Source: an uncultured delta proteobacterium
GTDB lineage: Bacteria; Desulfobacterota; Binatia; UBA9968
Assembly (NCBI GenBank): GCA_963745035.1
Contig: CAVUVW010000014.1
Span: 416,001-480,000 of the forward strand
DNA length: 64,000 bases
Direction of reading: 5' to 3'
Positions 6,824 through 30,853 of the stretch are shown one piece after another (the stretch's first letter is position 1; the number at the start of each line of letters is the position of its first letter). A model generated the notes under the pieces. It was not told where the DNA came from. It saw only the letters and a list, made by a program, of their open reading frames with translations, and searched no databases. The position numbers were made by a program, and so were the translations under genes.

Positions 6824-6854
6824 AATCGAAAATCTAAAATCCAAAATCGAAAAT
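6824..6854. repeat. 7-nt tandem repeat (AAAATC[G/T/C])
   Basis: aatcgaaaatctaaaatccaaaatcgaaaat. Confidence 0.7.
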
Positions 6855-6862
6855 GGTGGGCC

Positions 6863-7945
6863 ATGCCGAATAAGATTCTTATCGTCGACGACGAGCCTTT
6901 CAATCTCGACCTCTTGGAACAGGAGTTGATGGAGTTCAACTATGAGATCGAGAGAGCCAACGACGGCGTGGAAGCCCTGGAGAAAACCCGCAGCTTCAAC
7001 CCCGATGTTATCCTGCTCGATTTCATGATGCCGCGGATGAACGGTCTGGAAGTGGTCAAGCGGCTGAGGGGAGACCAAGAGCACAGAGGCATCCCGGTCA
7101 TCCTGCTGACCGCGAAAGCGACCCAGGAGGATAAAGTCGCCGGGCTCGACGCCGGCGCGGACGACTACGTCACCAAGCCCTTCGACGCCATCGAGCTGCT
7201 CGCGCGGGTACGCGCGATGATGCGCCTCAAGGAGATGCACGACACACTCCAGGAGTGGAACCGCTCCCTCGCCGATACGGTAAAAAAACAGGTGGCCGAT
7301 TTGGAGCGCATGGCCCGCCTCAAGCGCTATCTCGCGCCGCAGATCGCCGAGACGATCCTCGGCGAAGACAACGACCTGTTCAAGACCCACCGCAGAGAAA
7401 TTACCATCCTCTTTCTCGATCTGCGCGGTTTTACCGCATTCTCCGATAACGCCGAGCCGGAAGAGGTGATGGAATTCCTGCGCCATTATCACAGTGAGAT
7501 GGGCCAGTTGATCTTCAAGTACGAGGGTACCTTGGAGCGTTTTATGGGCGACGGGATTGTGGTAATTTTCAACGACCCGATTCTCTGCGAGCGCCACGCC
7601 CACAAGGCGATTGAGATGGCCATCGAGATGCGTGATCGGGTAAAAGAGTTGCGGACAACTTGGCGAAAAAAAGGGTATGATCTCGACCTGGGCGTCGGCG
7701 TTTCCTCCGGCTATGCCACTCTCGGCACGATGGGCTTTGAAGGACGCATGGACTACGGTACCGTCGGCAACCTGCCGAACCTGGCGTCGAGGCTGTGCGC
7801 CGAAGCCAAGGGCGGACAGATTTTAACCGACCAAAAAACCATGAGCCGGCTGGAGGACGCTTTCGAGGCGGAAGCGATCGAAGAACTCAATCTCAAGGGA
7901 ATCCATCGGCCGGTGGCGGCTTTCAACATTATTGGCATCAAGTGA
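6863..7945 (+). CDS. Response regulator fused to class III adenylate/guanylate cyclase
   Basis: REC 'ILIVDDEP...LLDFMMP...KPF'; cyclase 'LFLDLRGFT', 'RFMGDG', 'NLASRL'. Confidence 0.92.
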   Translation: MPNKILIVDDEPFNLDLLEQELMEFNYEIERANDGVEALEKTRSFNPDVILLDFMMPRMNGLEVVKRLRGDQEHRGIPVILLTAKATQEDKVAGLDAGADDYVTKPFDAIELLARVRAMMRLKEMHDTLQEWNRSLADTVKKQVADLERMARLKRYLAPQIAETILGEDNDLFKTHRREITILFLDLRGFTAFSDNAEPEEVMEFLRHYHSEMGQLIFKYEGTLERFMGDGIVVIFNDPILCERHAHKAIEMAIEMRDRVKELRTTWRKKGYDLDLGVGVSSGYATLGTMGFEGRMDYGTVGNLPNLASRLCAEAKGGQILTDQKTMSRLEDAFEAEAIEELNLKGIHRPVAAFNIIGIK

Positions 7946-7952
7946 CGATTCG

Positions 7953-8888
7953 ATGAACGAACCGATTGCACGCGGCGCCAAGGGAGCCGCGCGATTCAGA
8001 ATCAAATTTTGGGGCGTGCGCGGCAGTTATCCGACGGTAGATCCGGCAACCCTTGCGGTCGGGGGCAATACTTCCTGCGTGGAAGCCGAGGTCGACGGGC
8101 GCCGCTTGATCTTCGATGCCGGCACGGGAATCATTCGGCTCGGAAAGGAACTGTGCAACGGCGCATCATCCCCTCCCGCCGCGTATGTTTTTTTGAGCCA
8201 CACTCATATCGACCATGTTTTGGGACTTTGCTTTTTCGAGCCCCTCCTGACGGCCACAGGGCGGACTTTTATTCTCGGTCCCGGCGCAACCCGTGGGGCG
8301 TTGACACGGAGCTTGCGCCACCTGACAAACAGCCATTTGTTTCCCGTTTCTCTCGACGAGCTCAAAGGAAAGAAAGAAATTTTCTCACTCTCAGGCGGTG
8401 AGGTGATTTCCTTCGGATCGTCGGGCACCCGACCTAAGATCGAGGAACCGCGAGCCGCCGAGGGCTTCGAAGCTGGGGAACTGAGAATAACGACTTTGAA
8501 GAGCGCCGCGCATCCGTTAAACGGCGTCATGCTGTACCGGGTTCATTACCAGAACAAGAGTTTCGTTTTCGCCACGGATATCGAGCAACAGGAAGGCGGC
8601 TATCCCGAAATCATCGAGTTTGCCCGTGGCGCGGACCTATTGATCCATGACGCCCAGTATCTTCAGGACGAATACTTTTCACGCACCAAACCGCGCAAGG
8701 GCTGGGGTCACAGCACCATCGACATGGCGGTCGATGTGGCGCAAAAAGCCGGTGTCAAACGCCTCGCGCTCTTCCATCACGAACCGACTCATGACGACAA
8801 AACGATGAATAGCATTCAGAAGCAGGCCAAAGCACTTTTTCGCTCGACCATCGTTGCCCATGAAGGGATGGTCATCAATCTTCTCTAG
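7953..8888 (+). CDS. Metallo-beta-lactamase-fold hydrolase (possible cyclic-nucleotide phosphodiesterase)
   Basis: 'FWGVRGS', 'GGNTSC', 'DAGTG', HxHxDH 'HTHIDH', 'GWGHS', 'FHHEP'. Confidence 0.85.
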   Translation: MNEPIARGAKGAARFRIKFWGVRGSYPTVDPATLAVGGNTSCVEAEVDGRRLIFDAGTGIIRLGKELCNGASSPPAAYVFLSHTHIDHVLGLCFFEPLLTATGRTFILGPGATRGALTRSLRHLTNSHLFPVSLDELKGKKEIFSLSGGEVISFGSSGTRPKIEEPRAAEGFEAGELRITTLKSAAHPLNGVMLYRVHYQNKSFVFATDIEQQEGGYPEIIEFARGADLLIHDAQYLQDEYFSRTKPRKGWGHSTIDMAVDVAQKAGVKRLALFHHEPTHDDKTMNSIQKQAKALFRSTIVAHEGMVINLL

Positions 8889-13415: not shown

Positions 13416-14800
13416 ATGAAAAAGCTATTGTCCTGGTTGCCGAGCAGTCGGTCGTTCACAAGATTACTTTCGATCAGTGGCTGTTGCGGTCGTGGCCTTC
13501 GCGGCGCTGGAGTTGTTGGCCGTCCAGCAGGCGCTCGCGGGCAAGTGCTGTGTGCTGGTCACGAATCAGCTGCGAAGCACACGACTGCCTCTGCGATTCT
13601 TCAACTTCATGCAATATCACCAGGAACGGCAAGTTCACGGTGACCGCGAGTTCGACGGTCTTAGGACCTGTTGGAACTTCCGAAGTAGTTACGGTGCGGC
13701 CAGCCAACATCACATCCACGATCACTTGCGAGAACGCTCGACGGAACCGGCGAACATCACCGACCTCTGGACCCACAAGTTTCACACAAAGTGCACTACT
13801 GCAATGTCGAAGTACACCGAGTTGCGTAACATAATGACGCTGGCCTCTGTCAATTCGACCTCAAGTATTCTCGGTCTGATCCCAGCGAGTCTCAACGACG
13901 TGCAAACTCCCTGCCGCGGACGACACATCTAAGCTACTTATGCAGGCATCCTGCAGCGAGGCCAGCGGCGGTAACCCGGAACACTGGCGGTAACGGGCAC
14001 GCTCAAGTGTCCTGCAAGCTTGCAACCCACAGAACAGTCGGCGTGCGCATCCACTGGGGAGTTTGGCAGCTCCCCTTGGCTGTGGGCTGCCGTCGCGACG
14101 GCAACCAGGACTGTATCCTGAACTTGGGCATCGCTGGAGTGTCTTCAGGGCAATGTCCCACGTCTTTCCGGCCGGTACCGCGCTGGTTCCGCAGGTCCCG
14201 GACTCTCGCAGGGCAAGTGCTGAGCTTTTCCCAAACAGTACGAGGGTCTAGCCTGCGGCCCGGACAACCCAAGTACTTGCATTTGGCTCACTAGAGGCGA
14301 CTCGGTACTGCAGCGCGGGACTCTTTGCTAACGCTCCCGGCCTTCCCGTAGATTGCACACCGAATCAGGGACCGAACCGCTCACCGGACTCGGAACCGCG
14401 ACAGGCTGCTGTTCAGTTCGACGTCACCTTCTCTCCGACGACCCTTAACATCAACTGCGGCACTAACAACAACGACACCTGGCACTTTACGATCACTGGC
14501 AACCAGCACTTGACGGACTAACACGGATCGTTACGACATCGTCCCTGGCGGTCGAAGGCGTAGCTGGGTCAGGTCACCTGCGAACTGCTTACAAATCGGC
14601 GGCAAACACACTGACTTGCCACATAAACGCGTGTAACCAAATCAGGGCAACTGGATCTAGGGTCAGTTGTTTGTGCAAACAGGAACCCCAACGGGACGGT
14701 GGACCTCACGGTAACGGGAACGATCTTTGAGCGGAACAGACCGCGATCATCGGCGAGGATCTAAAGCCACAAAACGTCGGGAACGTGTACTTTGCAGGCT
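13416..14800 (+). CDS. Secreted Cys-rich, Thr/Ser/Gly-rich protein, heavily frameshifted (end approximate)
   Basis: RBS gaggagg + ATG; signal peptide ...AVVAFAALELLAVQQALA; coherent beta-rich segments in shifting frames (CDSSTSCNITRNGKFTVTAS; DGNQDCILNLGIAG; QFDVTFSPTTLNINCGTNNNDTWHFTITG; VCANRNPNGTVDLTVTGT). Confidence 0.55.
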
Positions 14801-14875
14801 GGCAGGTGATCGCCGCGCTGCCTACCGCCAACAGGCGGTGGGGCAGCGCTATCTGCTGCGACAGAGGGCTCATTC

Positions 14876-17800
14876 ATGTCTAGGTCACGGTGGCACGTGC
14901 GCGCCCTCGTGCTTGGCGCTGCGCTTTACGCGTTCGGCGCGGTCGTGTCCCTCACGGCTATGCGCAGGTCGCCACGGCGATCACGTCCGATGGCACGCTC
15001 GGTACCACGGTAGCGCCGATCCGGCAACCTGTATAACATCAACGGCGGGACGATCAAGGGAACCAATCAATTCCACAGTTTCGGCCAGTTCAGCGTTGGC
15101 ACGGGCGATATCGCGAGTTTCAATGGTCCCGCCGCACGATCCAGAACATTCTGAGTCGCGTGACCGGGGGAACTCGCTCTGAGATCGACGGCACGCTGCG
15201 ATCCACGATATCCGGTGCCAACCTGTTCTTGATGAATCCCAGCGGTATCCTGTTCGGGCCCAATGCGCAGCTCGACGTGAGCGGGTCGTTTCACGCAACG
15301 ACGGCAGACTATATCGGCCTTGCGGATGGGGTGCGCTTCAACGCGGTTCCGTCATCAGCCGACAACCTGCTCACCACCGCGCCCCCGGCGGCCTTTGGCT
15401 TTCTCACCTCGAACCCCGCGCCTATCGACGTGCAGACCGGCGCGTTCGACTCGACGTCTCTGGGTTAAAGAACGTACTGCAAGTACCGGCCGGAAAGACG
15501 TTATCCTTTGTTGGGGGACCCATCAACATTGGGCGCGGCGCCCGGGGCCTTCGCTGGCGGCTTCGTGTTCGCGCCCGGAGGCCGCATCAACCTCGTGAGC
15601 GTCGCCTCGCCGGGCGAGGCCAGATTCGACGGCACTGGCTTCAGCGTGGATACCTTTGCACGGCTCGGTGATATCAGCATCAAGGGAAACAGCGTCATCG
15701 ACGGGAAGGAGGTGTTCATACGCGGTGGGCGGCTCGTGATCGAGCAGGCGATTATCTATGCCCGGCTTTTTCTTTCAATTCGGCGTGCCTGTCGACCCCC
15801 CCGACGGCGGCGAGGTCAACATTCAGGTCTCTGATAGCGTCAACATCAAGGGGCCGCCGCCGGTCTTCAATGAATTCTCCGGCATCCTGACCTTTGCCGG
15901 CCTCCCGTTCCCTGGCGACGTGCCCCATATCAGTATCAAGGCGTCCTCCATATCCCTATCCGAGGGCGCGAGTAGTTCAGACCGTTAGACAAGGCCCTGG
16001 AAATCCGGCGAATATATCAATCGAGGCCGATACCGTGGAGGTACGAAGCGGAGCGTCCATAGCCGCCATGAATGTTTTCGAGGGGCCGGGCGGCACGCTT
16101 ACCGTAAACGCTCGAAATGTGACGCTGGACTCGGCAGGGCAGTGACCAGTTCACCGGGCTCTCGGCGCAGGCCGATTTCCATCCGGACTACGGTTCACTG
16201 ATTTTGAGACGGGATCATTTGCGGGGGCATTTTCGCCGTCTCTTGCAGTTGGCGGATAGCGGATCGATCACGGTCAACGCCACCGGCACGCTAACGATGC
16301 GCGGCAGCGCCCAGATCAGTACGGACAACTTTGCGTTTGGCAAAAGTGGCAATGTCACCGTCAACGCCGGAGACATGCTCCTGGTAGGCGCCGGGACCAA
16401 CACGGGGTTGATCTCTGCTCAAAGCAGGCTCGCCGGACGGTCAGGGGACGTTACGATCAACGCGACCGGAAGTATCGACATGCAAAACGGGTTCCGGATC
16501 AGCGCCAATACACTGGGCAGCGATGACGCGGGCCAGGTGAACGTACGCGCCGGTCGGTCTATCACCATGACCGGCAACTCAACCTTCATATCGAGCGTGA
16601 CGGGTCAGCCTGTGGATAGTGAGCTCGACAGCTTCGCACAGCTGTTTGCCCGTTCTTCGGACGCGTGGAATGATTCTCGACTACCCCTCACTGCGCGCGA
16701 CGCTCGGAGTAGCGCCGGGTCCGAATGACCTCATGAACGTGCTTGCCGCGCTGAGCACGATCTCGGACGGGGCCGGCAATCCCTTGGTGGCCGTCACCGA
16801 CTTCACGCCGGGTGCAGGGGGCAAAGTATCGATAACGGCACCGGTGTTGGCTGTTAACGACGGTGCACATATAGAGACCTCCACCGTCTGGGACGGCAAC
16901 GCCGGCGCGATCGCGCTCAACGTTGGCTCCCTGACCCTGCGCGATGGAGCTATCATCGGCAGCCGCAGCGGCGCTGTGCGTCCGGACCGCGGATTTACCG
17001 TCGGTACGGGCAATGCCGGCACGGTAGACATCGCCGCCACGGGTACCGTCGAGATCTCCGGGCGTTCGCCGACCTCGGGAGAGGGCAGCATCGTAACCAC
17101 TAACACCTTTGGCGATGGCAATGCGGGCAATATTTCCCTGAGCGCCAATCAGGTCAACGTTCAGAATGGTGGCATAGTTACCTCCGCAAGTGGCGGAACG
17201 GTTGACGGTCAGTTGTTCGTCGGGCGCCGGGAATGCCGGGCAGATCAATGTGTCTACACCGACGTTAACAATGGCTGATGGGACGATATCGGTTGCGACA
17301 TCGGGAGCGGGAAGTGCAGGGAGCATTTTGCTGAATGGTAACACTCTTAGCCTCACCGGTGGGTCGCAGGTTGTGAGCAGCACGACTGGCGCTGGTCAAG
17401 GTGGGAGCGTGGCAGCCACAGCGGGAGAATCGATCTTTATTTCTGGGAGTGGGAGTGGGTTACTCAGCACGGCCTCTAGCACCGGCAATGCCGGTCAGAT
17501 TACTGTTTCCACGCCGACGTTGACGATGGCAGAGAGTGGCACGATCTCGGTGGCTACTTCTGGCGCCGGAAATGCCGGCAACATCTCGCTTAACGTCGGC
17601 GACTTTACACAGACAGGTGGAGCGCAGGTTGTGAGCAGCACGACCAGCACGGGCCAGGGTGGGAATCTGACAGTCACTGCGGCAACCGAGTCGGCCTCGA
17701 TCTCTGGGCTGGGAAGCGGGCTATTCAGCACGGCATCGAGCACAGGGAATGCGGGAGAGATTACTGTTTCCACTCCGACCTTGACGATGGCGGACAGCGG

Positions 17801-20355
17801 CACGATCTCGGTGGCTACTTCTGGCGCCGGAAATGCCGGCAACATCTCGCTTAACGTCGGCGACTTTACACAGACAGGTGGAGCGCAGGTTGTGAGCAGC
17901 ACGACCAGCACGGGCCAGGGTGGGAATCTGACGCTTGCGGCAACCGAGTCGGCCTCGTTCTCTGGTTTAGGAAGTGGGCTCTTCAGCACGGCGTCGAGCA
18001 CGGGGAACGCGGGAGAGGTTACTGTTTCCACGCCGACCTTGGCTATGAACAACGGAGCGATCTCGGTGGCGACTTCTGGTGCTGGAAGTGCCGGCAACAT
18101 CTCGCTCAATGTCGGCAACTTTACACAGACAGGTGGAGCTCAAGTCGTGAGCAGCACGACCGGCACCGGCACCGGCGGCGCTATAACAGTCACCGCGACC
18201 GATGCAGCCTCCATCGCCGGGCCGGGCGGCGGACTATTCAGCACGGCATCGAGCACAGGAAATGCCGGTCAGGTGACCGTAACTGCACCGGCATTGGCCA
18301 TGGACAATGGCGGAACGATATCGGTGGCCACCGAAGGGGTCGGAGCCGCCGGCAATGTCTCGCTTAGCGTCAGCGAGTTGACTCTTGGCAGTGGGGCGCA
18401 GATCAGTAGCAGCACCAGCGGTGGTGGAGCAGGTGGGACGCTGGCGGTCGCTGCCGGCGAGTTGGTTTCCATTTCAGGTGCAGGGAGCGGATTATTCAGC
18501 ACGGCATCGAGCACGGGAAATGCGGGAGAGATTGCTGTCTCTGCGCCGGCATTGACCATGGCTGACGGCGGCGAGAATCTCGGTGGCCACTGAGGGTGCG
18601 GGCAACGCCGGTAACATCGCACTGAACGTAAGCAACTTTACACAGACAGGTGGAGCTCAAGTCGTGAGCAGCACGACCGGCACCGGCACCGGCGGCGCCA
18701 TAACAGTCACCGCGACCGATGCAGCCTCCATCGCCGGGCCGGGCGGCGGACTATTCAGCACGGCATCGAGCACAGGAAATGCCGGTCAGGTCACCGTAAC
18801 TGCACCGGCATTGGCCATGGACAATGGTGGAACGATATCTGTGGCCACCGAAGGGGTCGGAGCCGCCGGCAATGTCTCGCTTAGCGTCAGCGAGTTGACT
18901 CTTGGCAGTGGGGCGCAGATCAGTAGCAGCACCAGCGGTGGTGGAGCAGGTGGGACGCTGGCGGTCGCTGCCGGCGAGTTGGTTTCCATTTCAGGTGCAG
19001 GGAGCGGATTATTCAGCACGGCATCGAGCACCGGCAATGCGGGGCAGATTACCGTAGCCGCGCCGTCATTAGCGCCCGTGCCGACGTTGGCTCTGGCAGA
19101 GGGCGGGACAATATCGGTTGCGACATCGGGAGCTGGAAGCGCCGGGAGCATTTTGCTGAACGCGAACAATCTTAGCCTCACAGGTGGGGCACAGGTCGTA
19201 AGCAGCACGACCGGGGCCGGTCAGGGCGGAAGCGTGACGGCCAACGCTACCATCTCGGGTTCACTCTCCGGTCAGGGTACGGGTTTGTTCAGCACGGCAT
19301 CGAGCACGGGAAATGCGGGAGAGATTGCTGTCTCCACGCCGACCTTGACAATCGCTGACGCCGCAAGAATCTCGGTGGCCACTGAGGGTGCGGGCAATGC
19401 CGGCAACATCGCACTGAACGTAAGCAGCTTCACACAAACGGGCGGCGCTCGGGTTGACAGCAGTACAAGCGGCATTGGGTCGGGAGGAGATATAGCTATC
19501 GTGGCAGCTAACTCGACCTCCATCTCCGGTCCAGGAACCGGGCTGTTCAGCACGGCATCGAACTCCGGGGCCGGGGGCGATATCAATGTACAAGCGCCGC
19601 AGCTTAAGATCCTCGACGGCGCGACGATGTCGGCGAACAGCACCGGTACCGCGACGGCCACGGCCGGAAATGTCAACATCGTCACCAGCGACCTCGCCAT
19701 GCAGAGCGGTAGCATCACGACGCAGTCCACGCTAGCGGATGGCGGTAATATCTCGATCACCACCACGGGATCAACGAGCAATCTGACCAACAGCCAAATC
19801 ACCACCAGCGTGGCAAGCGGCACCGGTTCAGGAGGCAACATCACGATTGGTTCCGGGGCTCAGCCGTTTGATTTTATTCTTTTGAATGATAGTGAGATCC
19901 GCGCCGATGCCTTCGGCGGACCAGGCGGTAACATCAACATATTTGCCAATGTCTTTCTTCCTTCCGATAGCATCGTCAGCGCTTCTTCGGCTCTGAGCAC
20001 TCCCGGAGTCATCGACATCCAGGCGGTGTTTACTGATGTCAGCGGCAATGTGGCACCATTGCCGGAGGCGCCGCTTCAGGCGACAGAGCTTCTGCGCGCA
20101 TCTTGCGCAGCCCGCTTTGCGGGCGGGAAAGCGAGCAGCTTGGTGGCCGGCGGTCGCGATGGTGTCCCCATCCAACCGGGTGGACTCCTACCAAGTCCGT
20201 TTTATTCGGCAAGCGGGGCTGGCACTTCCGTTACAGGCATAAAAACATCCGACAACGATCTGCCCGCGCGATTCAGTCTGCTTGGGCCTGCTGATTCAAT
20301 GAATCGACGTTTGATTCAATATAGCCTGTTGCCAAACGTTAAATGCGCCTTCTAA
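14876..20355 (+). CDS. Filamentous haemagglutinin-like TpsA exoprotein (multiple frameshifts)
   Basis: Signal peptide then 'AQVATAITSDGTLGT'; TPS domain 'SRVTGG...ANLFLMNPSGILFGPNAQLDVSGSF'; beta-helix GNAG repeats; C-terminal 'LRASCAARFAGGKASSLVAGGRDGVP'. Confidence 0.88.
17230..19580 (+). repeat. About nine ~86-aa (255-276 nt) tandem repeats within TpsA
   Basis: 'GL(F/L)STASSTGNAG' recurs near 17463, 17724, 17981, 18237, 18494, 18754, 19012, 19288, with a variant at 19546; 18115-18514 is near identical to 18632-19031. Confidence 0.9.
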
Positions 20356-20487
20356 GCGGTGACAGGGCGCAGATCTGAAAATATCCGGTTCCGCGCTTCG
20401 ATTCGCCATTCCTGTGCGAGGGAACGCGGCGATTCGTCCAGTCAACCTAGCCGCCCTGCGTTTTTCTGTCCCAAAGAAACCGAGAGA

Positions 20488-22287
20488 ATGATAGGACTAG
20501 TGAACCTAGCGAGCACTGCGGTTGTAAAAAGAAACTTGGCATCGGGGTTCAACGTGAATTGGCCTATTGTTCGAGCGCTGTTTCTGATCGCGATTATTTG
20601 CTTCCCGGCTGGAGCGCGGGCTGCCGTCGTCGACCCAACCGGCCGATCGGGAGAGGCTCCCACTCTGCCACAGGACTTTCAGCCGCCGAAACCTCAGCCA
20701 GGGACACTCTTGCCGCCTGCGCCACTGGCGCCCACAGGCGATCCCATTCCGGGTTTGCGTGTCTTCGTGCGCGAGATCAAGGTTACCGGTAGCACGGTAT
20801 TTTCGGCGGACGAGCTGGGAAAACTAACGGCTCCTTATTTGAACCGCGAGGTCACGTCGGAGGATCTCGAAGCGCTGCGAGTCGCCTTGACGCTGCTCTA
20901 CGTCAACAATGGCTACGTCAATTCGGGGGCGATTCTGCCGGACCAGAAGGTTGCCGACGGCGTGCTGAATTATCAAATCATCGAGGGCAGCTTGACCGGG
21001 ATTGATGTGCGGGGTAACCGCTGGTTTCGCTCGAGTTACTTTCAAAAGCGTTTTTTACTCGACGCCGGCCCTCCGCTTAACGTCAACGCGTTGCAGCAGC
21101 GCTTACAGCTCATGCTCGAGGACTCCCGCATTCAACGCCTGAATGCGGAATTGCGACCGGGAGTCGCTCGCGGTGAGGGCATTTTGGATGTTCGGGTCGA
21201 GGAGCCGCGTCCCTACCGACTTTCGTTCGAATACAACAATTATCAGTCCCCTTCCGTTGGCGAGGACCGTGGCATCGTCGCCTTAGAACACCGAAACGTC
21301 ACCGGCAACGGGGATGTATTCACCGGGCAGTATGGGAGATCGCGAGGGCTCGATCCCCTGCTCGATTTTAAGTACTCATTCCCGGTGACGGCCCGTGACA
21401 CGATCCTCAGCTATCAGTACCGTAGAAATACCTTCTCTGTGATCGAGCAGCCGTTCGAGGATCTCGACATCGAAAGCAAATCGGACGTCTATACTTTGTC
21501 CGTGCGGCATCCGATTTATCGCACGCTCAATAATGAGATAGCTCTTGACCTCACTGGCGAGCGCCTGTCGCACAAAACGACTCTGTTGGGTGAAAAGTTT
21601 TCATTGGAGCCGGGAGCACGAAACGGCCGCACCGCGGTTACCGCCTTGCGGCCGGGTCTCGAGTGGGTGTACAAGTCGCAGAACCAGGTGATCGCCGCGC
21701 GTTCCCGCTTCTCGTTCGGAATTGATGCGATAGATGCAACGGTTAATGATAATGGCTTGCCCGATGGTAAGTTCTTCGCCTGGCTGGGCCAGTTCCAATG
21801 GGTCCGCCGCCTCGGTGTCTTGGACAGCTATTTTATCTTTAGAAGCGATGTTCAACTCGCTAATGATCCGCTTTTATCGCTCGAACAAATCTCCGTCGGT
21901 GGCCGCTACAGCGTCAGAGGATATCGAGAGAACACCCTGTTGAGAGACAGGGCGCTGATCACTTCTTTTGAGACGCGCCTGCCTTTGATCCCGCTGATGA
22001 GAAATTTCTTCGGGGTCGATTTGAATAGCTACGGCTTTCAATACTTAGAACTGGCGCCGTTCTACGATTTCGGACGGGGTTGGAACAAAGAGCTAAAGAC
22101 TCCCCAACCGCAAGACATTTCAAGTGTCGGCGTCGGTCTTCGATGGGCGGTTGCATATCCCTGGCTTGTGACTATTCGGCCTCAGTTCGAAGTATATTGG
22201 GGCCATCGGTTGAGAAAGGTTTTCAATCCGAGAGACTCTCTCCAGGACAACGGGGTCCACCTGCAATTTGTACTCGGATTCTTCTAG
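20488..22287 (+). CDS. TpsB (ShlB/FhaC/HecB) outer-membrane transporter
   Basis: POTRA region 'LYVNNGYVNSGA', 'GGRYSVRGYRE' motif, C-terminal Phe; start uncertain (20359-20554). Confidence 0.92.
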   Translation: MIGLVNLASTAVVKRNLASGFNVNWPIVRALFLIAIICFPAGARAAVVDPTGRSGEAPTLPQDFQPPKPQPGTLLPPAPLAPTGDPIPGLRVFVREIKVTGSTVFSADELGKLTAPYLNREVTSEDLEALRVALTLLYVNNGYVNSGAILPDQKVADGVLNYQIIEGSLTGIDVRGNRWFRSSYFQKRFLLDAGPPLNVNALQQRLQLMLEDSRIQRLNAELRPGVARGEGILDVRVEEPRPYRLSFEYNNYQSPSVGEDRGIVALEHRNVTGNGDVFTGQYGRSRGLDPLLDFKYSFPVTARDTILSYQYRRNTFSVIEQPFEDLDIESKSDVYTLSVRHPIYRTLNNEIALDLTGERLSHKTTLLGEKFSLEPGARNGRTAVTALRPGLEWVYKSQNQVIAARSRFSFGIDAIDATVNDNGLPDGKFFAWLGQFQWVRRLGVLDSYFIFRSDVQLANDPLLSLEQISVGGRYSVRGYRENTLLRDRALITSFETRLPLIPLMRNFFGVDLNSYGFQYLELAPFYDFGRGWNKELKTPQPQDISSVGVGLRWAVAYPWLVTIRPQFEVYWGHRLRKVFNPRDSLQDNGVHLQFVLGFF

Positions 22288-22319
22288 CGCAGAGCCTACG
22301 CGATCAATACCTTATCGGT

Positions 22320-22424
22320 TGTCGTTCTGAGGCGCAGCCGGAAAATCTGCTTATTGTGTCCATCGGAAAAGCAGATGCTTCGCGGAGTTTACCCTGACTT
22401 TGATCCGAAGGACTCAGCATGACA
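22320..22424. repeat. REP/BIME-like palindromic element between convergent genes
   Basis: tgtcgttctgag ... ctcagcatgaca terminal inverted repeat, with inner atctgct/agcagat pair. Confidence 0.6.
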
Positions 22425-22619
22425 TCCACAGGATTCGTCGCGATCGCTTTTCCTCTGTGGGCGAGCGTAAGATCAGAACTCGCTTGGTGGTGAATAGGAA
22501 AACGTCGATCGAGCGCCGAAGAATTAAGGGCACACAAGTCGTAGCGCGGGAGCTAAAAAAAGAGCCTCGGTGGCTGGCAGGGGAATATTCCACCCGCCTA
22601 ACCGCTTAAATGCCGATCA

Positions 22620-23294
22620 TCACTCGTTGGTGGAAGGCAATCCAACCTGAGTCAGCAGAGCTGCCCGCTGCTTGTGCAGTTCTACGTTCTGCGGCGCGGC
22701 GTCGATCAGATCCGAGATCGACTGCAAGGCGTCGTACCAAATTCCAGCTTCAGCATAGATGAAGGGCTTCTCGTTGTTGGCCGATTGCGCTAGCTTGGCT
22801 TTGAGCGGTTCCGGCATGTCGACCCGCTCAATGATACCGCCGGCCAGTATGTCTTTAGAGCGCCGGTCGGCATCGGGAACCACCGCGACAAACCATCGAT
22901 ACGCCATGCCCGGCTTGAGATGAATTTTATAGTCAACGAGTCGAACCTGCTGAATTCCCGACTTAACAGGAGCAGGAAGCCGTGTTTCCAGGATCGGTTG
23001 AATGCCCTGCGGCTCCATCACGGTCAGTTCGATCGGCAGGGAGGTCACGTTGGAGATGAACCAGTAAAGGGACGGTTGTTCGCTGGTCGTGAACCCACTG
23101 TGATCCGGCGCCAAAACCGAAAGAACGAAAACGTTCTTGTCACCTCTAGTGCCGCCGCCGACGCGGCCCCCGGGTGCTCCCCGGGGCGGAAGTTTATAAA
23201 CCGGAACTGTCGCATCCGCCGCTAACAAAGGTAACACCGTCGCTAGAATGAAAATCGCAGCTGAACAGCAAACCATCGGCCTTAGGTACTTCAT
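22620..23294 (-). CDS. DUF928 domain-containing exported protein
   Basis: Signal peptide; 'PPRGAPGGRVGGGTRG', 'TTSEQPSLYWFI', 'YAEAGIWYDAL', 'LLTQVGL'. Confidence 0.85.
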   Translation of the reverse strand: MKYLRPMVCCSAAIFILATVLPLLAADATVPVYKLPPRGAPGGRVGGGTRGDKNVFVLSVLAPDHSGFTTSEQPSLYWFISNVTSLPIELTVMEPQGIQPILETRLPAPVKSGIQQVRLVDYKIHLKPGMAYRWFVAVVPDADRRSKDILAGGIIERVDMPEPLKAKLAQSANNEKPFIYAEAGIWYDALQSISDLIDAAPQNVELHKQRAALLTQVGLPSTNE

Positions 23295-23646
23295 GATTCT
23301 TTCCTCCTTCGCATACGACGCGTAACATCGCGCCAGCCGCCGGCAGGAACTCGCATCTGCCCGAGAGCGTAGCCTCCCAATTTATCCCGACTCTATTCTA
23401 TAATTTCCCTTTTAGCTATCTATGTTCCGCGTACCGCAACTCACGTTTACCGTCAATGCCATGCACCGGCTCTTTCGTAGCTTAGCGAAAACGTCCCATC
23501 GGATAAAATCTTTTCGGCGAAGCAGTGAGATCAGGATAAAAGCGATTGGCGAGTTTGAGACATGACACACGCCCACGCGATGCTTTCGGCAAAACGGGGT
23601 GATGCTCGTCAAGTCGCATATTGTCGCGGGATTCTGCTGGCTTTTG

Positions 23647-25956
23647 TTAGAGCCAATTATTGATCATCAGGAACGCAGACCAATATCCTGGGTGTTCATA
23701 ACGCGGATTTTCAATCAATTTCAGTTGCGCCCGCTGCAGAGCGACCGCTCTCGATATCGCCGGGTTCTTAACTTCGCGGTAAAAGTCCAGAACCAAGCCC
23801 ACTGTCGCTTCGTCGTTGATGTTCCATAAAGTCGCGAGGGCGCTTCTGGCCCCTGCCTTAATCGCCATTCCCGCCAGGCCCAAAGCAGCTCGGTCATCGC
23901 CGGCCGCGGTGTCGCACGCGCTCAAGGTGAGTAGCTCTAACGGATCATCACGAAATCTGAAGACTCCGACCATCTGATTGAGTCGGTCCAACGACAACTT
24001 GTCATCGAAAGTGAGCAGGAAAGTGTTTTCGACATCGTTCCCAAACTCTCCATGCGAAGCGACATGGACGATGGTGAATTCCTCGTCCTTCAACTTCTTT
24101 TCCAAATTGGCCGCGAGAAACTCGCGGTTGACAAGGTTCTGACTTCCCAGAAGAGTGTGCATTTGTTGCAGCTCCGCCGCGACATTAGGCAATGCCGGAA
24201 ACCCCTGCACCGCCTCCGTCACGCCGACAGCCAACACCTTCATATTTTCTCGCTTGAGTGGGCGAGGATCGCTGAGATTCAAGCTGGGAGTGATCCCTAC
24301 GGCGTATTTGGCGATCAAAAACTGCTTCCCGTCATGCAGGGCCGTCATCGGAATCGTTCGGAGCGCTCCGTCAGGGACGAAAACCAGGGTATCGATGGGC
24401 GACGCCGCAAGGTCCGCCTCCAACGGTCGGATCAGCCAATCATAGAGTTTTTGCGCGTGAGGCAGGTACTCCCGCGTCGTTCGTTTTTCCAGCCTGCGGC
24501 GCAATTGGCGCACCTCCTCTGTGAGCGTCGCCGCGCCGACGGGAACCGATACTCGTTTTAGCCCGCTCGGCAAGCTTAGGAGCAGCTCGGTTCGATCTGC
24601 CAGGAGGATCGGGTAGATGACAACCGCTGTCTGGGCCACGACATCGAGCGTGGTGATTTTCGATAGGGCAGTATCGACGCAATCGTCACGGAAGTAATCG
24701 CGCAATTCGGCCGCCTTAAACAATTCGATAGTCTCGCGCGCTTCGATCAGGTAGGGCCCGACTTGGTCGCGGTCCTGCAGCGACGCTGCGCGTTGCAGCA
24801 GCAGATCCACCAACTCAAAATACACGGGTCCCATACTCTCTCGGAACGAAGTTTGTGGAGCTCCATAGCTGACCGACAGCTCGGGTCGAATCGATTGAAG
24901 CGTTCGCACGGCGCGGCGGTAGGCTCCAATCGCGTCGTCGATCGTTCCGATTTTCCGTAGTAGACGTCCCGTTTGCCATTCCCAGCGATAAAGCGATTCA
25001 GGCGCATTGACTTGCTGGGCTGCGAACGTCGCCCTGCGAGTCAACTGCAAAGCCTCTTGGTAGCGCTGTTCGTCTTCGTACAAACTGCCGAGATGGCCCC
25101 AAGCGTAGGACGACATGCGGCGGTCTCCGATACTCTCGGCCGTCGTGGCCGCTTCACTAAGCGCCTTATGCGCAAGCAGTAAAAGAGACTCTTTTGCGTC
25201 CGGTAAATTTGGACGCAGATCGAAATAGCCCAGCCCGATGTTAACTAAGCCCGCTGCTTTGTCGTGTGATGGTTCCAAGGCAGCCATTTGATCCAACGCC
25301 TTGTCGAGCAGCGCTTTAGCCTCCTTATGTTGGTTGATATTTGTTGACGCGGTTGCGGCATTGACCAGCGCGGTTGCAACCAGCGAGTGGTTATTGCCCA
25401 CGGATGCGAGAGACACACTCTCCTTGTAGGCGGCGAGGGCTTCGGTGTATTTTTTTTGTTGTGTTAGAAGATTTCCGAGGTTGTTCAGGATGATTGCGGA
25501 TACATCCTGGTTCTTCAGTTCTCTTGCCAAGCGAAGCCCTTCATCAAGGTGTTTTCGAGCTGTTTCCAAAGGGCCGGTGGCAATATAAACGTTGCCCAAG
25601 GTTGCTCGCGCAATAGCAAGCTGCGTTCTATCATTCGACTTATCAGCGAGCGCCAGAGCCGACTCGAGATTTTGTAAGGCGTCCCTATAGTGACCAAGCG
25701 CCTGGTATGCTTGAGCGAGGTGAATGAGCGCGCTACTCTGTTCGCTGAACTTTTGCTCTGCTTCGTACAATCGCGCGGCTTCTCGCCAACTCAATGTTGC
25801 CTGCTCGAAATCACCGTGCTGCGATAGGCGCAAGCCCTCTTTCATACGTTGCTCCGCCGAAGGAGATGCCGAGGCGGGCAAAGTGGCGGCTAACGAGACT
25901 GGAAGATTTCCAACAGAAGTGAGAATGGCGAGTGCTAGAATTCGCCCAGTACACAT
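23647..25956 (-). CDS. Exported TPR-repeat CHAT (caspase/separase-like) protease
   Basis: Signal peptide; many TPRs; 'VPDGALRTIPM', 'LPNVAAEL', catalytic His 'HVASHG' and Cys 'LSACDTA', 'TLWNIND', 'HPGYWSAF'. Confidence 0.93.
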   Translation of the reverse strand: MCTGRILALAILTSVGNLPVSLAATLPASASPSAEQRMKEGLRLSQHGDFEQATLSWREAARLYEAEQKFSEQSSALIHLAQAYQALGHYRDALQNLESALALADKSNDRTQLAIARATLGNVYIATGPLETARKHLDEGLRLARELKNQDVSAIILNNLGNLLTQQKKYTEALAAYKESVSLASVGNNHSLVATALVNAATASTNINQHKEAKALLDKALDQMAALEPSHDKAAGLVNIGLGYFDLRPNLPDAKESLLLLAHKALSEAATTAESIGDRRMSSYAWGHLGSLYEDEQRYQEALQLTRRATFAAQQVNAPESLYRWEWQTGRLLRKIGTIDDAIGAYRRAVRTLQSIRPELSVSYGAPQTSFRESMGPVYFELVDLLLQRAASLQDRDQVGPYLIEARETIELFKAAELRDYFRDDCVDTALSKITTLDVVAQTAVVIYPILLADRTELLLSLPSGLKRVSVPVGAATLTEEVRQLRRRLEKRTTREYLPHAQKLYDWLIRPLEADLAASPIDTLVFVPDGALRTIPMTALHDGKQFLIAKYAVGITPSLNLSDPRPLKRENMKVLAVGVTEAVQGFPALPNVAAELQQMHTLLGSQNLVNREFLAANLEKKLKDEEFTIVHVASHGEFGNDVENTFLLTFDDKLSLDRLNQMVGVFRFRDDPLELLTLSACDTAAGDDRAALGLAGMAIKAGARSALATLWNINDEATVGLVLDFYREVKNPAISRAVALQRAQLKLIENPRYEHPGYWSAFLMINNWL

Positions 25957-26323
25957 AACCGGAAAGAAAAGCGACGTATTGCCTGAACAGCACGATTCAA
26001 TAACATAACTTTTTACGTCTCGTCAGTTACTTGAAAGGCGCCCGATCTATATCGCGGAATCTTCTCTTAATCAATCTCTGCCGATGCCCAGGATTTTCTC
26101 TCGGGTGTTAAGAGTTTTAGTCGGGTTTAGAGGGGCGGAGTCAGCCGTTATGCCGTGCAATCAGGCCGCCTTGGGTCGAAGAGCTGAAATGTGGCCGTAG
26201 TCGACTGAAATGGCACTATCATGAGACAGTGAAGGAACATGGGGCAATATTGGGTTTCAGTGTTCAGGTTTCAGGATTAAAAGTTTCTTGACATCGATAC
26301 CTCAAACCTGAAGGAGAAACACA

Positions 26324-26844
26324 ATGAAGTTTCATTTCGTGAAAACAAGTATGAGCGTTGCCCTAGCGACGGTAGTCTCGGCAGTCGTGATAGTGGCTTG
26401 CGGCCCAGCGAGCACATCAAGAGATACCGCCGGTAGCAGGGAAATTGTCACGGCTCGCAGACAGCTCGATGATCACATGGCGGAATGTACCAAACGCTAC
26501 GGTTATGATCCCGAAGCTGGCTCCAAACTTGGGGCAAATGTCCTTGGGCCAGGTGAGCGAGAATGGCGGGGCTGCGTCTATCAGGGAATCGAAAAGTACT
26601 TGATCCCGAGAACGCTGAGCCCCGAAGTCATACCGACGCGCGATTGCCGAGGACCGCAAGATGACCGACAGCCATCGCCAAAGGCGAGATGACCCGCGCG
26701 CAGCGTCAGGCTCGTGTCCAACAGATGCTTGAAGAGATCGACCGGATAGAGGAAGCAAACCGGGCTAAGCAAGACATCGATCGCTTGGAGATGGAGATGC
26801 GACAGGACATGATGCGGCGGTCGCTCAGTCCGCTTGTGCGTTGA
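26324..26844 (+). CDS. Hypothetical lipoprotein (frameshifts near 26630-26680)
   Basis: RBS aaggaga; lipobox 'VIVAC'; corrected frame continues ...MTRAQRQARVQQMLEEIDRIEE...SLSPLVR*. Confidence 0.65.
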
Positions 26845-27062
26845 GGCGGCGTCCACAGCATGGACGGCTTTGGTAAGCAGAATTAGCGCAGTCAGCGGCG
26901 ATTGGAGAACTGCCCCATGCAATAAATAACTCAGTTATCGCTTGACCTCCCGACTAAAGCGCTTTCGCTTGGTCATCGAACAGGTTTCTTGTCCCCTATT
27001 TCGGTGTCCGTTTCACCCGGGCGAGGTCAATCGAATCTTCTTTCGAGGTTAAAAAATTTTCA

Positions 27063-29198
27063 TCATTTCTCCTGCATGACCACCAGGACTCCGTTTTCGC
27101 CCGCCGCCAGCCGCCAGGCATGAAACGCCGCGGGCGCGTCGGCCGGAAAATCGCGGTGCAGCGCAGCGAAAAGTTCCGCGGCTTCAGGTTTTTCCTGGCT
27201 TAGCGCAGCATAGGCTTCGGCGTAGCGCGCCAGCAGCGCCGGCGGGTCGGCCGGAGAGACCGGCGCCAGGATAGGGTACGGCATTCTTTCGGCCTTTCAC
27301 GATTATGTCACCAACCGGACGAAACGCTATGGCGCCGGCACTGCGCGGCGGTCTCGCCGGTCACCGCTACATGGCTGCCGATATACTTGTTCAGCCCCTC
27401 CACGCGGGAGGCGGTGTTCAGCGTATCGCCCAGCGCGCCGTATTTCAGCTTGCCGTGCGTGCCGATATTGCCGACCAGCGCCATGCCGGTATGCACGCCG
27501 ATGCGGGTATGGCCCCACTCGATGCCGCGCGCCGCAAGCTCGGCACTGAAAGCGCTGGCCGCGCTTGTCCATCGCCAGAGCGGCGGCCACGGCGCGGTCA
27601 GCGTGGTCTGCCTGGTGCATCGGCGCACCGAACAGCACCACCAGGCCGTCGCCGATGAAGTCGTTTACCAGGCCGCCATTTTGCACCACCACATCTGTCA
27701 GCACGCCGAAATAGTCGCCTAGCAGCGCGGCCACGGTGGCAGCGTCCAAGTTCTCGGCCGTGGTGGTGAAGCCGGCGATATCGGTGAAGATAGCGGTGAC
27801 CTCGCGGTGCTCGCCACCAAAGCTCGGCAGGGTGTCGCCCTGCATCATCTGGCTGATGATGCGCGGGTCGAGGTAGCTCTCGAAGCTGCGGCGTAGTTGG
27901 GCACGTTCCCGCAGCCCGACCGAGTGCATGACGAAGTTGCAACCTGCCGCGCTCAGTACCCAGGCCAGCGCCACCGGCACGCCTGGCAACAACACTCCAG
28001 CCTCGAAGCCCCAGGCGGTGGCGCCAGCCACCAATCCAAGGGCTAGCAGCAGCGCCACCAACACCACCAGCACACGCCAGACCAGCAGCGCCAGCACCGC
28101 GCCGGCCATGGCCGCGGCCCAGATGGCGACATGGTCCAGCACGCGCGGCAACGGTACCGGGTTGCGCGCTTCGCCATTGGCTAGGCGGATCAGCTGGTCA
28201 GCGGTGTGCGCATGCAGTGCAATCCCGATAAGCGCTCCCTCGCCGCTCCAGCCTGTACTCAACGGGGTGGCGAAACTATCCTTGATGGAAAGCGCCGCGG
28301 TGCCGACCAGCACAATGCGGTCGCGCAGCGTCTCCGCCAGCTCCGGCCGGTCGATGATCTCGGCGAAGCTGATCTGGCGGAAGCGCCGGTGGCCGCCGCG
28401 AAAATCCAATAGCATCTGGTAGCCAGCGGCATCCACCCGTGCATAGGGACCATAGGGCTGGTTCAGCAGCGGGATGCGGCCTTGGCCTAGCGCCAGGTCA
28501 TCGTCCATCGGGCGCAGTTGCTGGCCGGTGTAACGTTCGGCCAGAGAGACGCCCATGGTGCGCCAGTTTGTACCGGTGCGTTCATCGGCGGCGAAAAGCA
28601 GTGCCCGGCGCACCACACCGCCGGCATCCGTCACGTGGTCGGCCAGTACCTCGCGGCCAGTCCCTCGCAGTACCGGCGGCGGCGGAACACCGGTATTGCC
28701 CTCGTCCGGCAGCTTGAAGACCCAATAAAGGTTGTCCTGCGCCCGCTGGATGGCTTGCAACGCCTCGTTGCCCGGCGGCATGGGCAAGTCGCGGTACAGA
28801 TCCACGCCCACCGCCTTCGGCCCGCCGGCGAAGACGCGTGCCAGCACGGCAGAAAGGTCGTTGTCGCGGATGGGATAACCGAAGCGGTTAATATCCGCTT
28901 CGGTGGTGACCACCAGCACCACGCGGTCGCTTTCCTGTGACCCGGCAAAGAAGGTCACCAGCCTGTCGTACGACGAAAGCTCCAACCCTTGCAGCCAGCC
29001 GGCTTCCCGCAGCGGCACCAGTAGCAGGGCCACCAGGCTTGCCACCATCAGCGCCTTGACGAAACGCCGGCGCAGCAGGGCGGCCAGCCAATGCCGCGTT
29101 CGTGCTGGCGCGCCTTGCGCCGCCTGGCCTGCGCCGCCATCGATCTTAACGTCGCGGGATCTTTGACCAACTCCTAAAGTCGGTTGGGTTCCGGGCAT
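27063..29198 (-). CDS. CHASE2-domain class III nucleotidyl cyclase (frameshifts near 27300-27570)
   Basis: CHASE2 'LQGLELSSYDRL...VGVDLYRDLP...LRDRIVLVG...KDSFATP...HAH', 3 TMs, 'IFTDIAGFT', 'FIGDG', 'GDTLNTASRVEG', C-terminal 'GVLVVMQEK'. Confidence 0.9.
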
Positions 29199-29830: not shown

Positions 29831-30853
29831 ATGAGGGCTTTTGCGACGTTACTGATACTGGTATGCCTCGGATATCCACATACAGCTCAAGCGGCAGGCG
29901 ATACGCTAGCCGAGGTCGACGGCGTTCCGATCACCTCCGAGGAAGTTGAGAAGCCTCTGGCGTCGCAGCTGAGCAAGCTCGAAGAGCAAATTTACAACAT
30001 GAAGCGCCAACGTGTTGAGGCGCTTATCAATGAGAAACTTCTTGCTAAAGAGGCAGCGAAAAGAAGCCTCTCGGTTCCGGCGCTTCTCGATGCCGAAGTC
30101 ACCTCGAAAGTCGGTCTAGTCACAGAGCAGGAGATTGAAAAATTTTACGAGCAAAACAAAGCCCAGCTGAAAGGCGAAAAGAGCAGTCTGCGGGAACAAA
30201 TCAGGCCTCACCTGCAAAATCAGAAACTAGCTGCGAAGCGAGAAGAATTTCTAAAATCGCTCCGCTCGCAAGCCAAAATCGTAGTTAACCTGAAGCCGCC
30301 GCACGTCCCTCGGGTCGAAGTGGCGGTGGAGGGAGCACCTTTTAAAGGACCTGAGAAAGCGCCGGTTACCATAGTTGAGTTTTCGGACTTTCACTGCCCG
30401 TTTTGCCAGCAGGTTCTCCCCACTCTCGCTCAAATCGAATCGCAGTACGGCGACAAAATAAAGCTTGTCTTTCGTGACTTTCCGATCGAGGGCATACATC
30501 CGGGAGCGAGCAAGGCCCACGAGGCGGCGCGCTGCGCACACGAACAGGGCAAATTTTGGGCTTATCACGATAAGTTATTTGCTAGTCCGCCGAAGTCCAG
30601 CCCGGAAATCTTCAAAGCGATCGCCAAGGAGCTCGCGCTCGACATGACTCGCTTTGGGACCTGTTTCGATAGCGGGAGGTATCAGGCCATCGTCAAGAAA
30701 GACGTCGAGGAAGGGAATCGCCTAGGCGTAACGGGCACTCCCGGCTTCTTCATCAACGGCCGCAGTGTTTCAGGCGCGCAGCCGCTGGAGGCTTTCACGC
30801 GCATTATCGATGACGAACTGTCCCGCGGTGCTATCCAGAGCGGTACTCGTTAG
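29831..30853 (+). CDS. DsbA-family thioredoxin with SurA-like N-terminal domain
   Basis: Signal peptide; 'EFSDFHCPFC', 'GVTGTPGFFING...GAQP'. Confidence 0.9.
   Translation: MRAFATLLILVCLGYPHTAQAAGDTLAEVDGVPITSEEVEKPLASQLSKLEEQIYNMKRQRVEALINEKLLAKEAAKRSLSVPALLDAEVTSKVGLVTEQEIEKFYEQNKAQLKGEKSSLREQIRPHLQNQKLAAKREEFLKSLRSQAKIVVNLKPPHVPRVEVAVEGAPFKGPEKAPVTIVEFSDFHCPFCQQVLPTLAQIESQYGDKIKLVFRDFPIEGIHPGASKAHEAARCAHEQGKFWAYHDKLFASPPKSSPEIFKAIAKELALDMTRFGTCFDSGRYQAIVKKDVEEGNRLGVTGTPGFFINGRSVSGAQPLEAFTRIIDDELSRGAIQSGTR

Follow-up and report, generated by a model that had tools for sequence, protein, structure and literature searches.

Positions 13416 to 29198 of a 64-kb stretch of bacterial DNA (contig CAVUVW010000014.1; the whole stretch is called the window below) hold a group of genes for a two-partner secretion (TPS) exoprotein, TpsA, its pore, TpsB, an exported TPR-CHAT protease, an exported DUF928 protein, and an inner-membrane cyclase that joins a CHASE2 domain to a class III catalytic domain. 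All five parts have an envelope-exposed portion. We tentatively regard the locus as one copy of a widespread, uncharacterized five-part envelope module that may pass the state of a filament and of a protease to the cyclase, here in a Binatia-like soil bacterium. This reading is plausible, though we hesitate to call it probable. Within it, we infer a proteolytic relay through CHAT.

Gene set and co-inheritance of the module

The genes were read in all frames, and the resulting pieces were scanned against Pfam and NCBIfam (Table 1). An earlier note, made from the letters of the window, had named TpsA, TpsB, DUF928, TPR-CHAT, a lipoprotein, and a CHASE2 cyclase as members of the cluster. All of these lie where it had placed them, as judged from Pfam and, for the VIVAC sequence of the lipoprotein, from the translation. 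The locus is bounded by the start codon of an upstream Cys-rich protein and by the start of the cyclase gene. Hydrophobic, signal-like N-termini are found by a hydropathy heuristic on DUF928, CHAT, TpsB, and the lipoprotein. The export of CHAT and DUF928, also claimed earlier, agrees with these segments, and the periplasmic location of DUF928 is further supported by proteins in which a peptidoglycan-binding domain is fused to DUF928 (P0143 and P0232).

Table 1 Coordinates in the window of the genes of the locus and of other genes discussed in the text
Gene or product	Positions	Strand	Remarks
Cys-rich exported protein	13416..14883	+	ATG at 13416, then a signal-like segment; several frame changes
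TpsA	14876..20355	+	TPS domain, beta-helix with 258-bp repeats, predicted disordered tail; about 11 frame changes
TpsB, Omp85 family	20359..22287	+	ShlB and POTRA_2; intact
DUF928 protein, 224 aa	22620..23294	-	PF06051; intact
TPR-CHAT protease, 769 aa	23647..25956	-	CHAT and TPR_12; intact; His635/Cys681
Small lipoprotein	26324..26844	+	lipobox-like VIVAC; two +1 shifts
CHASE2, transmembrane segments, and class III cyclase	27063..29198	-	three 1-nt insertions
Candidate effector outside the locus: cyclic nucleotide-binding, MalT-like TPR region, DASS anion symporter	9940..12600	+	cNMP_binding E 6e-23; Na_sulph_symp E 2e-34
NMT1-like gene	2030-3113		split
Histidine kinase	3914-6003		HAMP, GAF, and HisKA-HATPase in three frames
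MreC	44876-45755		barrel without N-terminal part
Amidase	59626-60966		about 55 aa unaligned and a stop codon mid-gene

A scan for related loci, anchored on a 16-sequence DUF928 alignment, gave 79 loci (denoted by L numbers), and the window proteins were searched against all of their open reading frames (ORFs). At least one partner gene accompanies DUF928 in 73 of the 79. The 32 loci with at least 9 kb of sequence on both sides (full-flank loci) contain TpsA in 27 cases, TpsB in 29, CHAT in 29, and CHASE2 in 28; all four partners are present in 22, and no full-flank locus is without any partner. The dominant order is TpsA, TpsB, CHAT, CHASE2, and DUF928 on one strand. This canonical order is kept in L004, L005, and L007, and in most loci the CHASE2 gene is immediately followed by that for DUF928. 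In the window, L002, and L003, where both are seen, the CHAT and DUF928 genes are directly adjacent.

The distance matrices of TpsB, DUF928, CHAT, and the CHASE2 cyclase, compared over 30 loci with mean identities of 0.45-0.48, correlate with r 0.84-0.91, a value uncontrolled for phylogeny. The correlated distances fit inheritance as a unit, but shared species history would also raise r. Co-inheritance of the components, on which the earlier note had made its model depend, is borne out by the gene counts together with this correlation. The rearranged gene order in the window and its closest relatives would suit a chance clustering of genes without a common function. Such clustering is nevertheless scarcely credible, in view of the 22 full-flank loci with all four partners under many phylum-level labels, the natural fusion of two of the parts (CHASE2 cyclase and DUF928, described later), and the correlated distance matrices.

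The titles of the 79 loci name Nitrospirota, Methylomirabilota/Rokubacteria, Beta-, Gamma-, and 'Delta'-proteobacteria, Desulfobacterota-type genera, Geobacter relatives, Entotheonella, Scalinduaceae, and others, and some of these labels are plainly unreliable. For the window itself, the named matches of PBP2 (42455-44335) are to Candidatus Binatia (87, 85, and 81% identity), with two labeled Deltaproteobacteria and one labeled Betaproteobacteria. The module had been pointed out earlier as occurring here in a non-cyanobacterial lineage. This is true of the Binatia-like host, but it is nothing special: none of the 79 loci bears a cyanobacterial label, in a scan whose patterns came from non-cyanobacterial sequences, and a non-cyanobacterial host is usual for the module. 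The DUF928 family has 4,831 representatives at E up to 0.001, the nearest one in the species collection is 75% identical to that of the window, and look-alike clusters of the feature are commonest in Cyanobacteriota and Pseudomonadota. No description of the five-part combination (CHAT, CHASE2, haemagglutinin or two-partner secretion, and DUF928) was found in the literature covered, which leaves out most subscription journals.

Properties of the five parts and a candidate circuit

TpsA has a TPS domain (PF05860) at 15037-15468 (E 6.8e-26; TIGR01901, E 7.7e-19), and an NPNG-type motif is present in the translation as NPSGILFGPNA. If read through its frame changes, the protein has about 1,825 aa. 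A tandem repeat of a 258-bp unit, in 6.6 copies, occupies 17358-19070. Two 300-nt stretches of the repeats, 517 nt apart, are 94% identical, and this offset equals two units plus one base. TpsB gives matches to ShlB (E 4.1e-26) and POTRA_2 (E 6.3e-19) in Pfam and is 63-75% identical to the TpsB proteins of L001-L007. Its longest ORF begins 4 nt past the TpsA stop, and an ATG at 20488 precedes the signal-like segment; TpsA and TpsB are an adjacent cognate pair.

The C-terminal tail of TpsA should be noted, as it takes part in the circuit proposed below. The last ~300 residues are conserved across 48 loci. The alignment of these 48 related loci with the window gives the tail motif LLRxxCxxR..GKxSSLVxxGRxGxPxxPG; in a 43-sequence alignment the motif stands in the consensus and its Cys is at least 90% conserved. 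Many sequences also have a terminal Cys at the end of the tail. In the AlphaFold2 (AF2) model of the last 300 residues, a beta-helix extends to about residue 193 and is followed by about 107 low-confidence residues, which hold one short helix with LLRxxCAAR and then GKxSSLVxxGRxGxPxxPG. The last 599 aa of TpsA match no Pfam family, and hence no toxin or pre-toxin domain is seen there.

Toxins are delivered by TpsA/TpsB pairs in contact-dependent inhibition (CDI) systems, and conflict systems are known to include CHAT proteases. On this ground, the locus could be taken for a system of contact-dependent inhibition, toxin delivery, or anti-phage defense, in which TpsA would have a toxic C-terminus, CHAT would be a maturation or executioner protease, and DUF928 would provide immunity. 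PADLOC gives weak domain-level matches that would suit this (a TPR model, BovA with E 2e-4, and Pycsar cyclase with E 3e-10), but nothing above the domain level. We consider a conflict system very improbable. The TpsA C-terminus is conserved, not polymorphic, over the 48 loci and is without a Pfam toxin or pre-toxin domain, and DUF928 and CHAT are exported, which makes them unsuited to be an immunity protein and a cytoplasmic executioner. The neighboring genes that were scanned serve housekeeping and transport, and none of them is a cas gene.

The TPR-CHAT protein is matched by CHAT (PF12770, E 5.7e-59) and TPR_12 (E 4.7e-28) in Pfam. The intact His/Cys dyad that had been read from the DNA is present as His635 and Cys681, both at least 95% conserved in 48 aligned sequences. 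A signal-like segment is found in 40 of the 48 CHAT ORFs of related loci, and a lipobox-like Cys in several. By sequence, CHAT matches PDB entries in its TPR part only. Since many caspase-fold proteases prefer Arg or Lys, we infer that the Gly/Arg-rich linear motifs of the TpsA tail and of the DUF928 N-terminus may be CHAT substrates.

The DUF928 protein matches PF06051 with E 2.2e-36 (125.8 bits against a cut-off of 26). Its AF2 model, made from a 59-sequence alignment, has a mean predicted local distance difference test score (pLDDT) of 87.8 and consists of a signal helix, a low-confidence N-terminal segment, a seven-strand Ig-like sandwich (58-157), and four TPR-like helices (162-216). The most conserved stretch of the family, YxPPxRGAPxGRVGGGTRG, sits in the low-confidence N-terminal segment, and the protein of this copy carries the conserved motif PVYKLPPRGAPGGRVGGGTRG. 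A profile search of the PDB with DUF928 gives 0 matches at E up to 1. The best fold match in the PDB is the C-terminal domain of MtxA (4z29), with E 2.5e-5 and template modeling (TM) scores of 0.46/0.57. DUF928 models as an Ig-like plus TPR-like adaptor.

DUF928 is joined to the cyclase in three proteins, P0274, P0275, and P0276, where CHASE2, the cyclase, and DUF928 are read in one frame of 904-915 aa. Between the cyclase and DUF928, these proteins retain the signal segment of DUF928, which may serve as a membrane helix. With this helix, DUF928 would return to the periplasm, beside the CHASE2 domain. A complex prediction for the periplasmic part of CHASE2 (58-352) and mature DUF928 (27-224) gave scores of 0.00 and 0.01 against a mark of 0.32, and weighs neither way. 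Other arrangements of DUF928 were also observed. P0271 has a tandem double DUF928, and two DUF928 ORF matches occur in each of L006, L009, and L064; the pair in L006 overlaps and is probably a frame split.

The cyclase has an N-terminal membrane helix, a CHASE2 domain (E 1.1e-41), further membrane helices, and a class III cyclase domain, which Pfam finds split over two frames; the architecture is seen from Pfam, hydropathy, and alignment together. Read in one frame, the protein can be aligned over its full length with its 705-aa counterparts in L038 and L001, apart from some 90 nonsense residues; the true gene end is near 27063, not 27327. Both metal-binding Asp residues are present in the window, and the Asn and Arg are encoded in a shifted frame within the stretch that three insertions disrupt. 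Among related loci, 58 candidate CHASE2 ORFs were found and 53 were scanned; 51 of these have the class III cyclase domain (Guanylate_cyc), and the two without it are truncated ORFs in L006 and L007. In a 45-sequence alignment the metal-binding Asp residues are invariant (45/45), and the transition-state Asn and the Arg are kept in 44 and 43 sequences, respectively. Judged from these residues, the module's cyclase looks catalytically competent. Cyclic-nucleotide synthesis as the output, an earlier proposal, accords with the 51 cyclase-bearing CHASE2 partners and the invariant Asp residues, as well as with the nearby cyclic nucleotide-binding genes described later.

The product is less clear. 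Among solved structures, the catalytic domain is closest to Cya2 (2W01), with E 2e-30 to the intact L038 orthologue and E 1.6e-19 to the window ORF. According to the available text of PMC5995499, Cya2 is a CHASE2-regulated guanylate cyclase, and the E488K substitution makes it an adenylate cyclase. The position of Glu488 is occupied by Asp in the window cyclase and in the L038 orthologue. With Asp in the window and Gly at the second position in L038, the specificity pair fits neither the Lys/Asp type (adenylate) nor the Glu/Cys type (guanylate). The window's own residue at the second position falls in the out-of-frame stretch. Across the family, the first position is variable (Asp 25, Gln 9, Lys 6, Ser 3, and Asn 2 of 45), so that the product is uncertain and may often not be cyclic AMP (cAMP).

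Proteins that bind cyclic nucleotide monophosphates (cNMPs) are encoded within 10 kb in 11 of the 79 loci, and in 8 of the 32 full-flank loci. The outputs of these neighbors differ: a DASS symporter, a Ser/Thr kinase, a patatin, an HD domain, and a CRP-type helix-turn-helix. The protein at 9940-12600 in the window is the candidate here. Its orthologue (87% identity) flanks the module in L007, where the ORF is cut at the locus end and the symporter domain alone is visible. A similar cNMP-binding-DASS fusion flanks the module in L014, and other cNMP-binding proteins with different outputs do so in 9 further loci. A second cyclic-nucleotide neighborhood lies just upstream of the locus, composed of a REC-cyclase (6599-7945), a metallo-beta-lactamase-fold hydrolase (7932-8888), and the cNMP-binding-DASS gene. 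The hydrolase has a weak resemblance to a family of cNMP phosphodiesterases, with a score far under the cut-off of that family.

These observations can be arranged in the following candidate circuit. TpsA would leave the cell via TpsB, while its conserved disordered tail, with the Cys and the Gly/Arg motif, would stay in the periplasm. Periplasmic CHAT would act on the Gly/Arg-rich linear motifs of the TpsA tail, of the DUF928 N-terminus, or of both. DUF928 would then convey, with the CHASE2 domain, the state of the filament and protease to the cyclase. The cyclase product, possibly not cAMP in view of the Asp in place of Lys at the specificity position, would be read by cNMP-binding effectors, and in the window the effector could be the cNMP-gated DASS symporter. 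In its most specific form, the circuit is an outside-in sensor: the filament is coupled, by mechanical or chemical means, through its retained tail to CHAT, and cleavage at the Gly/Arg motifs of the tail or of DUF928 yields a ligand for CHASE2 that switches on the synthesis of a cNMP, maybe not cAMP. We put this form forward as possible but doubtful. The relay suggested in the earlier note would have the filament sense contact or damage, the TPRs activate CHAT, CHAT process DUF928 or TpsA, and CHASE2 respond to that event.

In this gene set, CHASE2 and an exported CHAT protease are associated with a secreted filament, with an adaptor, and with an enzyme of second-messenger synthesis, which offers a testable circuit with candidate cleavage motifs. 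We know of no role that has been assigned to exported CHAT proteases. If the circuit is true, it would provide the first defined role of an exported bacterial CHAT protease and the first defined input for a CHASE2 domain, the natural signals of which are not known according to the available text of PMC5192318.

Several observations weigh against the module as we read it. A Nitrospirales-type variant (L054, L061, L062, L074, L076, L077, L079, and similar loci) keeps TpsA, CHAT, DUF928, and TpsB with no CHASE2 cyclase detected in the flanks, which makes the cyclase a non-obligatory part. In 77 loci, the sequence upstream of the DUF928 ORF sufficed to score the DUF928 motif. The motif is found in 67 of them, namely in 50/56 with a CHASE2 gene and in 17/21 without; being kept in the variant without CHASE2, it is independent of CHASE2. 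The window and its nearest relatives have no canonical CHASE2 gene between CHAT and DUF928, and a divergent one is found nearby, in varying positions and orientations. This divergent cyclase is shared by the window, L001, L003, and L038 (85-90% identical mutually, and about 30% to the canonical type). The fusion proteins P0274-P0276 are closely related to one another, represent one lineage, and could be read-through gene calls. The specificity position is unusually variable and seldom has the Lys of adenylate cyclases. Finally, the cNMP-binding-DASS gene also adjoins the REC-cyclase, and its assignment to the module is ambiguous.

The same parts could also work in the reverse direction, in a manner like that of the Lap system. 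The module would then mainly hold or release TpsA, the CHASE2 cyclase with DUF928 would sequester or free CHAT, and the cNMP would serve as feedback and not as the chief output. Trimming of the periplasmic TpsA tail by CHAT for adhesin release would match the Lap cast; the tail is conserved and predicted to be disordered, and CHAT is exported. The variant without the cyclase still has TpsA, TpsB, CHAT, and DUF928, which fits a core of adhesin and protease. However, the partner in the inner membrane is not a degenerate receptor but an enzyme whose catalytic residues are intact, the adjoining cNMP-binding effectors with their unrelated outputs point to an inward signal, and no part is homologous to LapA, LapG, or LapD in Pfam or NCBIfam. 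We consider control from the inside unlikely.

Accessory genes and frame breaks

Besides the five parts, the locus contains two further exported proteins, which had been described earlier as extra to the module. This description holds for one of them. The lipoprotein, in which VIVAC follows a hydrophobic segment, has no match in Pfam, NCBIfam, or PADLOC and no relative in the 79 loci. The upstream Cys-rich protein, on the other hand, recurs in relatives. Its N-terminus is 60-62% identical to the ORF preceding TpsA in L005, and it shows weak collinear similarity, over three frames, to an intact 380-aa protein upstream of TpsA in L012. A Pfam scan of this protein gave no match. It is a lineage-specific accessory.

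On the other side of the locus, a DsbA-like thioredoxin lipoprotein with a SurA-N-like domain is encoded at 29831..30853 (+) (Thioredoxin_4, E 2.7e-33; DSBA, E 4e-25). It adjoins the cyclase in the window, in L003 (13542-14573; 66% identical), and in L038 (2484-3524; 81%). This lipoprotein could be of relevance to the upstream Cys-rich protein and to the cysteines in the TpsA tail. Scanning the entire window for Rfam families and tRNA genes gave no hits.

The earlier note had overlooked that TpsA, the cyclase, the lipoprotein, and the upstream exported gene are all disrupted in frame. The ORFs between 12.7 and 17.2 kb do not exceed 231 aa. TpsA is collinear with the intact or near-intact TpsA of L005, L004, and L007 across frames 1, 2, and 0, with about 11 frame changes. 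The first shift is near 14950. Two short stretches inside the TPS domain, about 15020-15135 and 15465-15545, are out of frame, and beyond them come six +1 shifts in succession, near 15775, 15965, 16135, 16700, 17223, and 18570, the last of which is visible as a repeat spacing of 259 instead of 258 among spacings in multiples of three. In the lipoprotein gene, +1 shifts near 26625 and 26675 precede the end near 26844. The upstream Cys-rich gene is broken several times and is read across three frames. In the catalytic domain of the cyclase, a nucleotide alignment with three orthologues shows 1-nt insertions at about 27550, 27329, and 27276, and the frame is restored after the third. Two of the three insertions lengthen short homopolymers; otherwise, the sequence between the breaks remains near that of the three orthologues, with no more than scattered substitutions, which favors errors as the cause.

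Frame breaks elsewhere in the window were judged from Pfam domains split over frames, and they affect the NMT1-like, histidine kinase, MreC, and amidase genes in Table 1. These breaks suggest that patchy indel errors extend over the whole window. Two further features were observed near these genes: an ORF for DUF559 (Vsr-like endonuclease fold) at 5973-6404, with the broken histidine kinase on one side and a response-regulator gene on the other, and a cell-shape operon of MreB, MreC, MreD, PBP2, and RodA at 41362-46790. Genes of the same module are likewise split in other records of metagenome-assembled genomes (MAGs), L005, L006, L007, and L042.

We think it likely that the frame breaks are assembly errors rather than gene decay, because nearly all are +1, they come in frame-restoring patches, housekeeping genes are affected, and other MAG records are split alike. 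The competing explanation, that the window copy is a genuinely decaying, non-functional locus with real mutations, has evidence of its own. Within 16 kb, TpsA, the lipoprotein, and the cyclase together have at least 16 located breaks, and the upstream gene adds others. The break density is about 7 times that of the remaining window, which also fits real decay and so tells against our view of the locus. TpsB, DUF928, and CHAT stand intact amid the broken genes.

Natural gene decay in bacteria is biased toward deletion, whereas nearly all of the breaks here are +1 insertions. The short frame-restoring patches (three insertions in 275 nt of the cyclase, and two pairs of shifts in the TPS domain) also argue against decay, as does the cyclase outside the patch, which is about 90% identical in protein to its orthologues. 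No large deletions are seen, stop codons occur solely in out-of-frame stretches, and MreC and the amidase show a like pattern. In sum, decay is a rather unlikely explanation. A programmed frameshift or an alternative genetic code was also considered and dropped, as the shifts go both ways and unrelated genes are affected. If the breaks are patchy insertion errors, as we think likely, this copy of the module is a sequence of poor quality, and genuine genes will appear broken when genes are called on it.

Comparison with known systems

The TpsA and TpsB pair resembles the two-partner secretion systems FhaB/FhaC and ShlA/ShlB in the N-terminal TPS domain, the beta-helical passenger, and the adjacent Omp85 TpsB with POTRA. 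A possible periplasmic C-terminal part of TpsA recalls the FhaB prodomain. The module differs from these systems by CHAT, DUF928, the CHASE2 cyclase, and a family-specific tail motif that is predicted to be disordered, and no toxin or haemolysin domain was found in it. It is not a CDI system of the CdiA/CdiB/CdiI type, since the C-terminus is conserved and without a toxin domain and the neighboring small proteins are exported.

The Lap system of Pseudomonas (LapA/LapG/LapD) combines a surface adhesin anchored in a pore of the outer membrane with a cysteine protease of the periplasm and a partner in the inner membrane that couples the periplasm to nucleotide signaling. The likeness to the module is one of functional logic only; a LapG-type protease and a GGDEF-EAL receptor of the LapD type are not among the families that the Pfam and NCBIfam scans found. 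Lap has type I secretion, a transglutaminase-like protease, and a receptor for cyclic di-GMP, whereas TPS, CHAT, and a cyclase are found here. By this comparison, the direction of signaling is probably opposite to that in Lap.

Csx29 of the type III-E Craspase, a cytoplasmic protein with a gRAMP/Cas7-11 gene next to its own, is similar in having TPR repeats followed by CHAT with a His/Cys dyad. The protein of the module is not a TPR-CHAT of the Craspase type, because it is exported and no cas genes are among the ORFs scanned.

For the cyclase, Cya2 of Synechocystis (2W01) has the same architecture, and Gly at the second specificity position is common to it and the L038 orthologue. Cya2 has Glu488 where the window has Asp, and the CHASE2 part in the window is of the divergent type. 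A pathway with a similar layout is described for Sinorhizobium meliloti in the available text of PMC13001267, where the outer-membrane barrel NsrA acts through the CHASE2 cyclases CyaD1/CyaD2/CyaK and cAMP on Clr, in response to a protein signal. The likeness lies in an outer-membrane beta-barrel upstream of CHASE2 class III cyclases and a cNMP-binding regulator downstream. As far as that text describes it, the NsrA pathway is without a TPS exoprotein, CHAT, or DUF928. This pathway and the Lap system, neither of them named in the earlier note, are the nearest functional parallels to the module.

The nearest structural counterpart of DUF928, MtxA of Magnetospirillum, is a periplasmic Big+TPR protein; its gene lies in a signaling operon, and the available text of PMC4439547 suggests a role as a sensor or in interactions. 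MtxA and DUF928 share Ig-like and TPR-like domains with the TM scores given above and without sequence similarity, and the function of MtxA is itself unknown. Each part of the module is from a known family (TPS, Omp85, CHAT, CHASE2, and class III cyclase), and it is their five-part combination of which no description was found in the literature covered.

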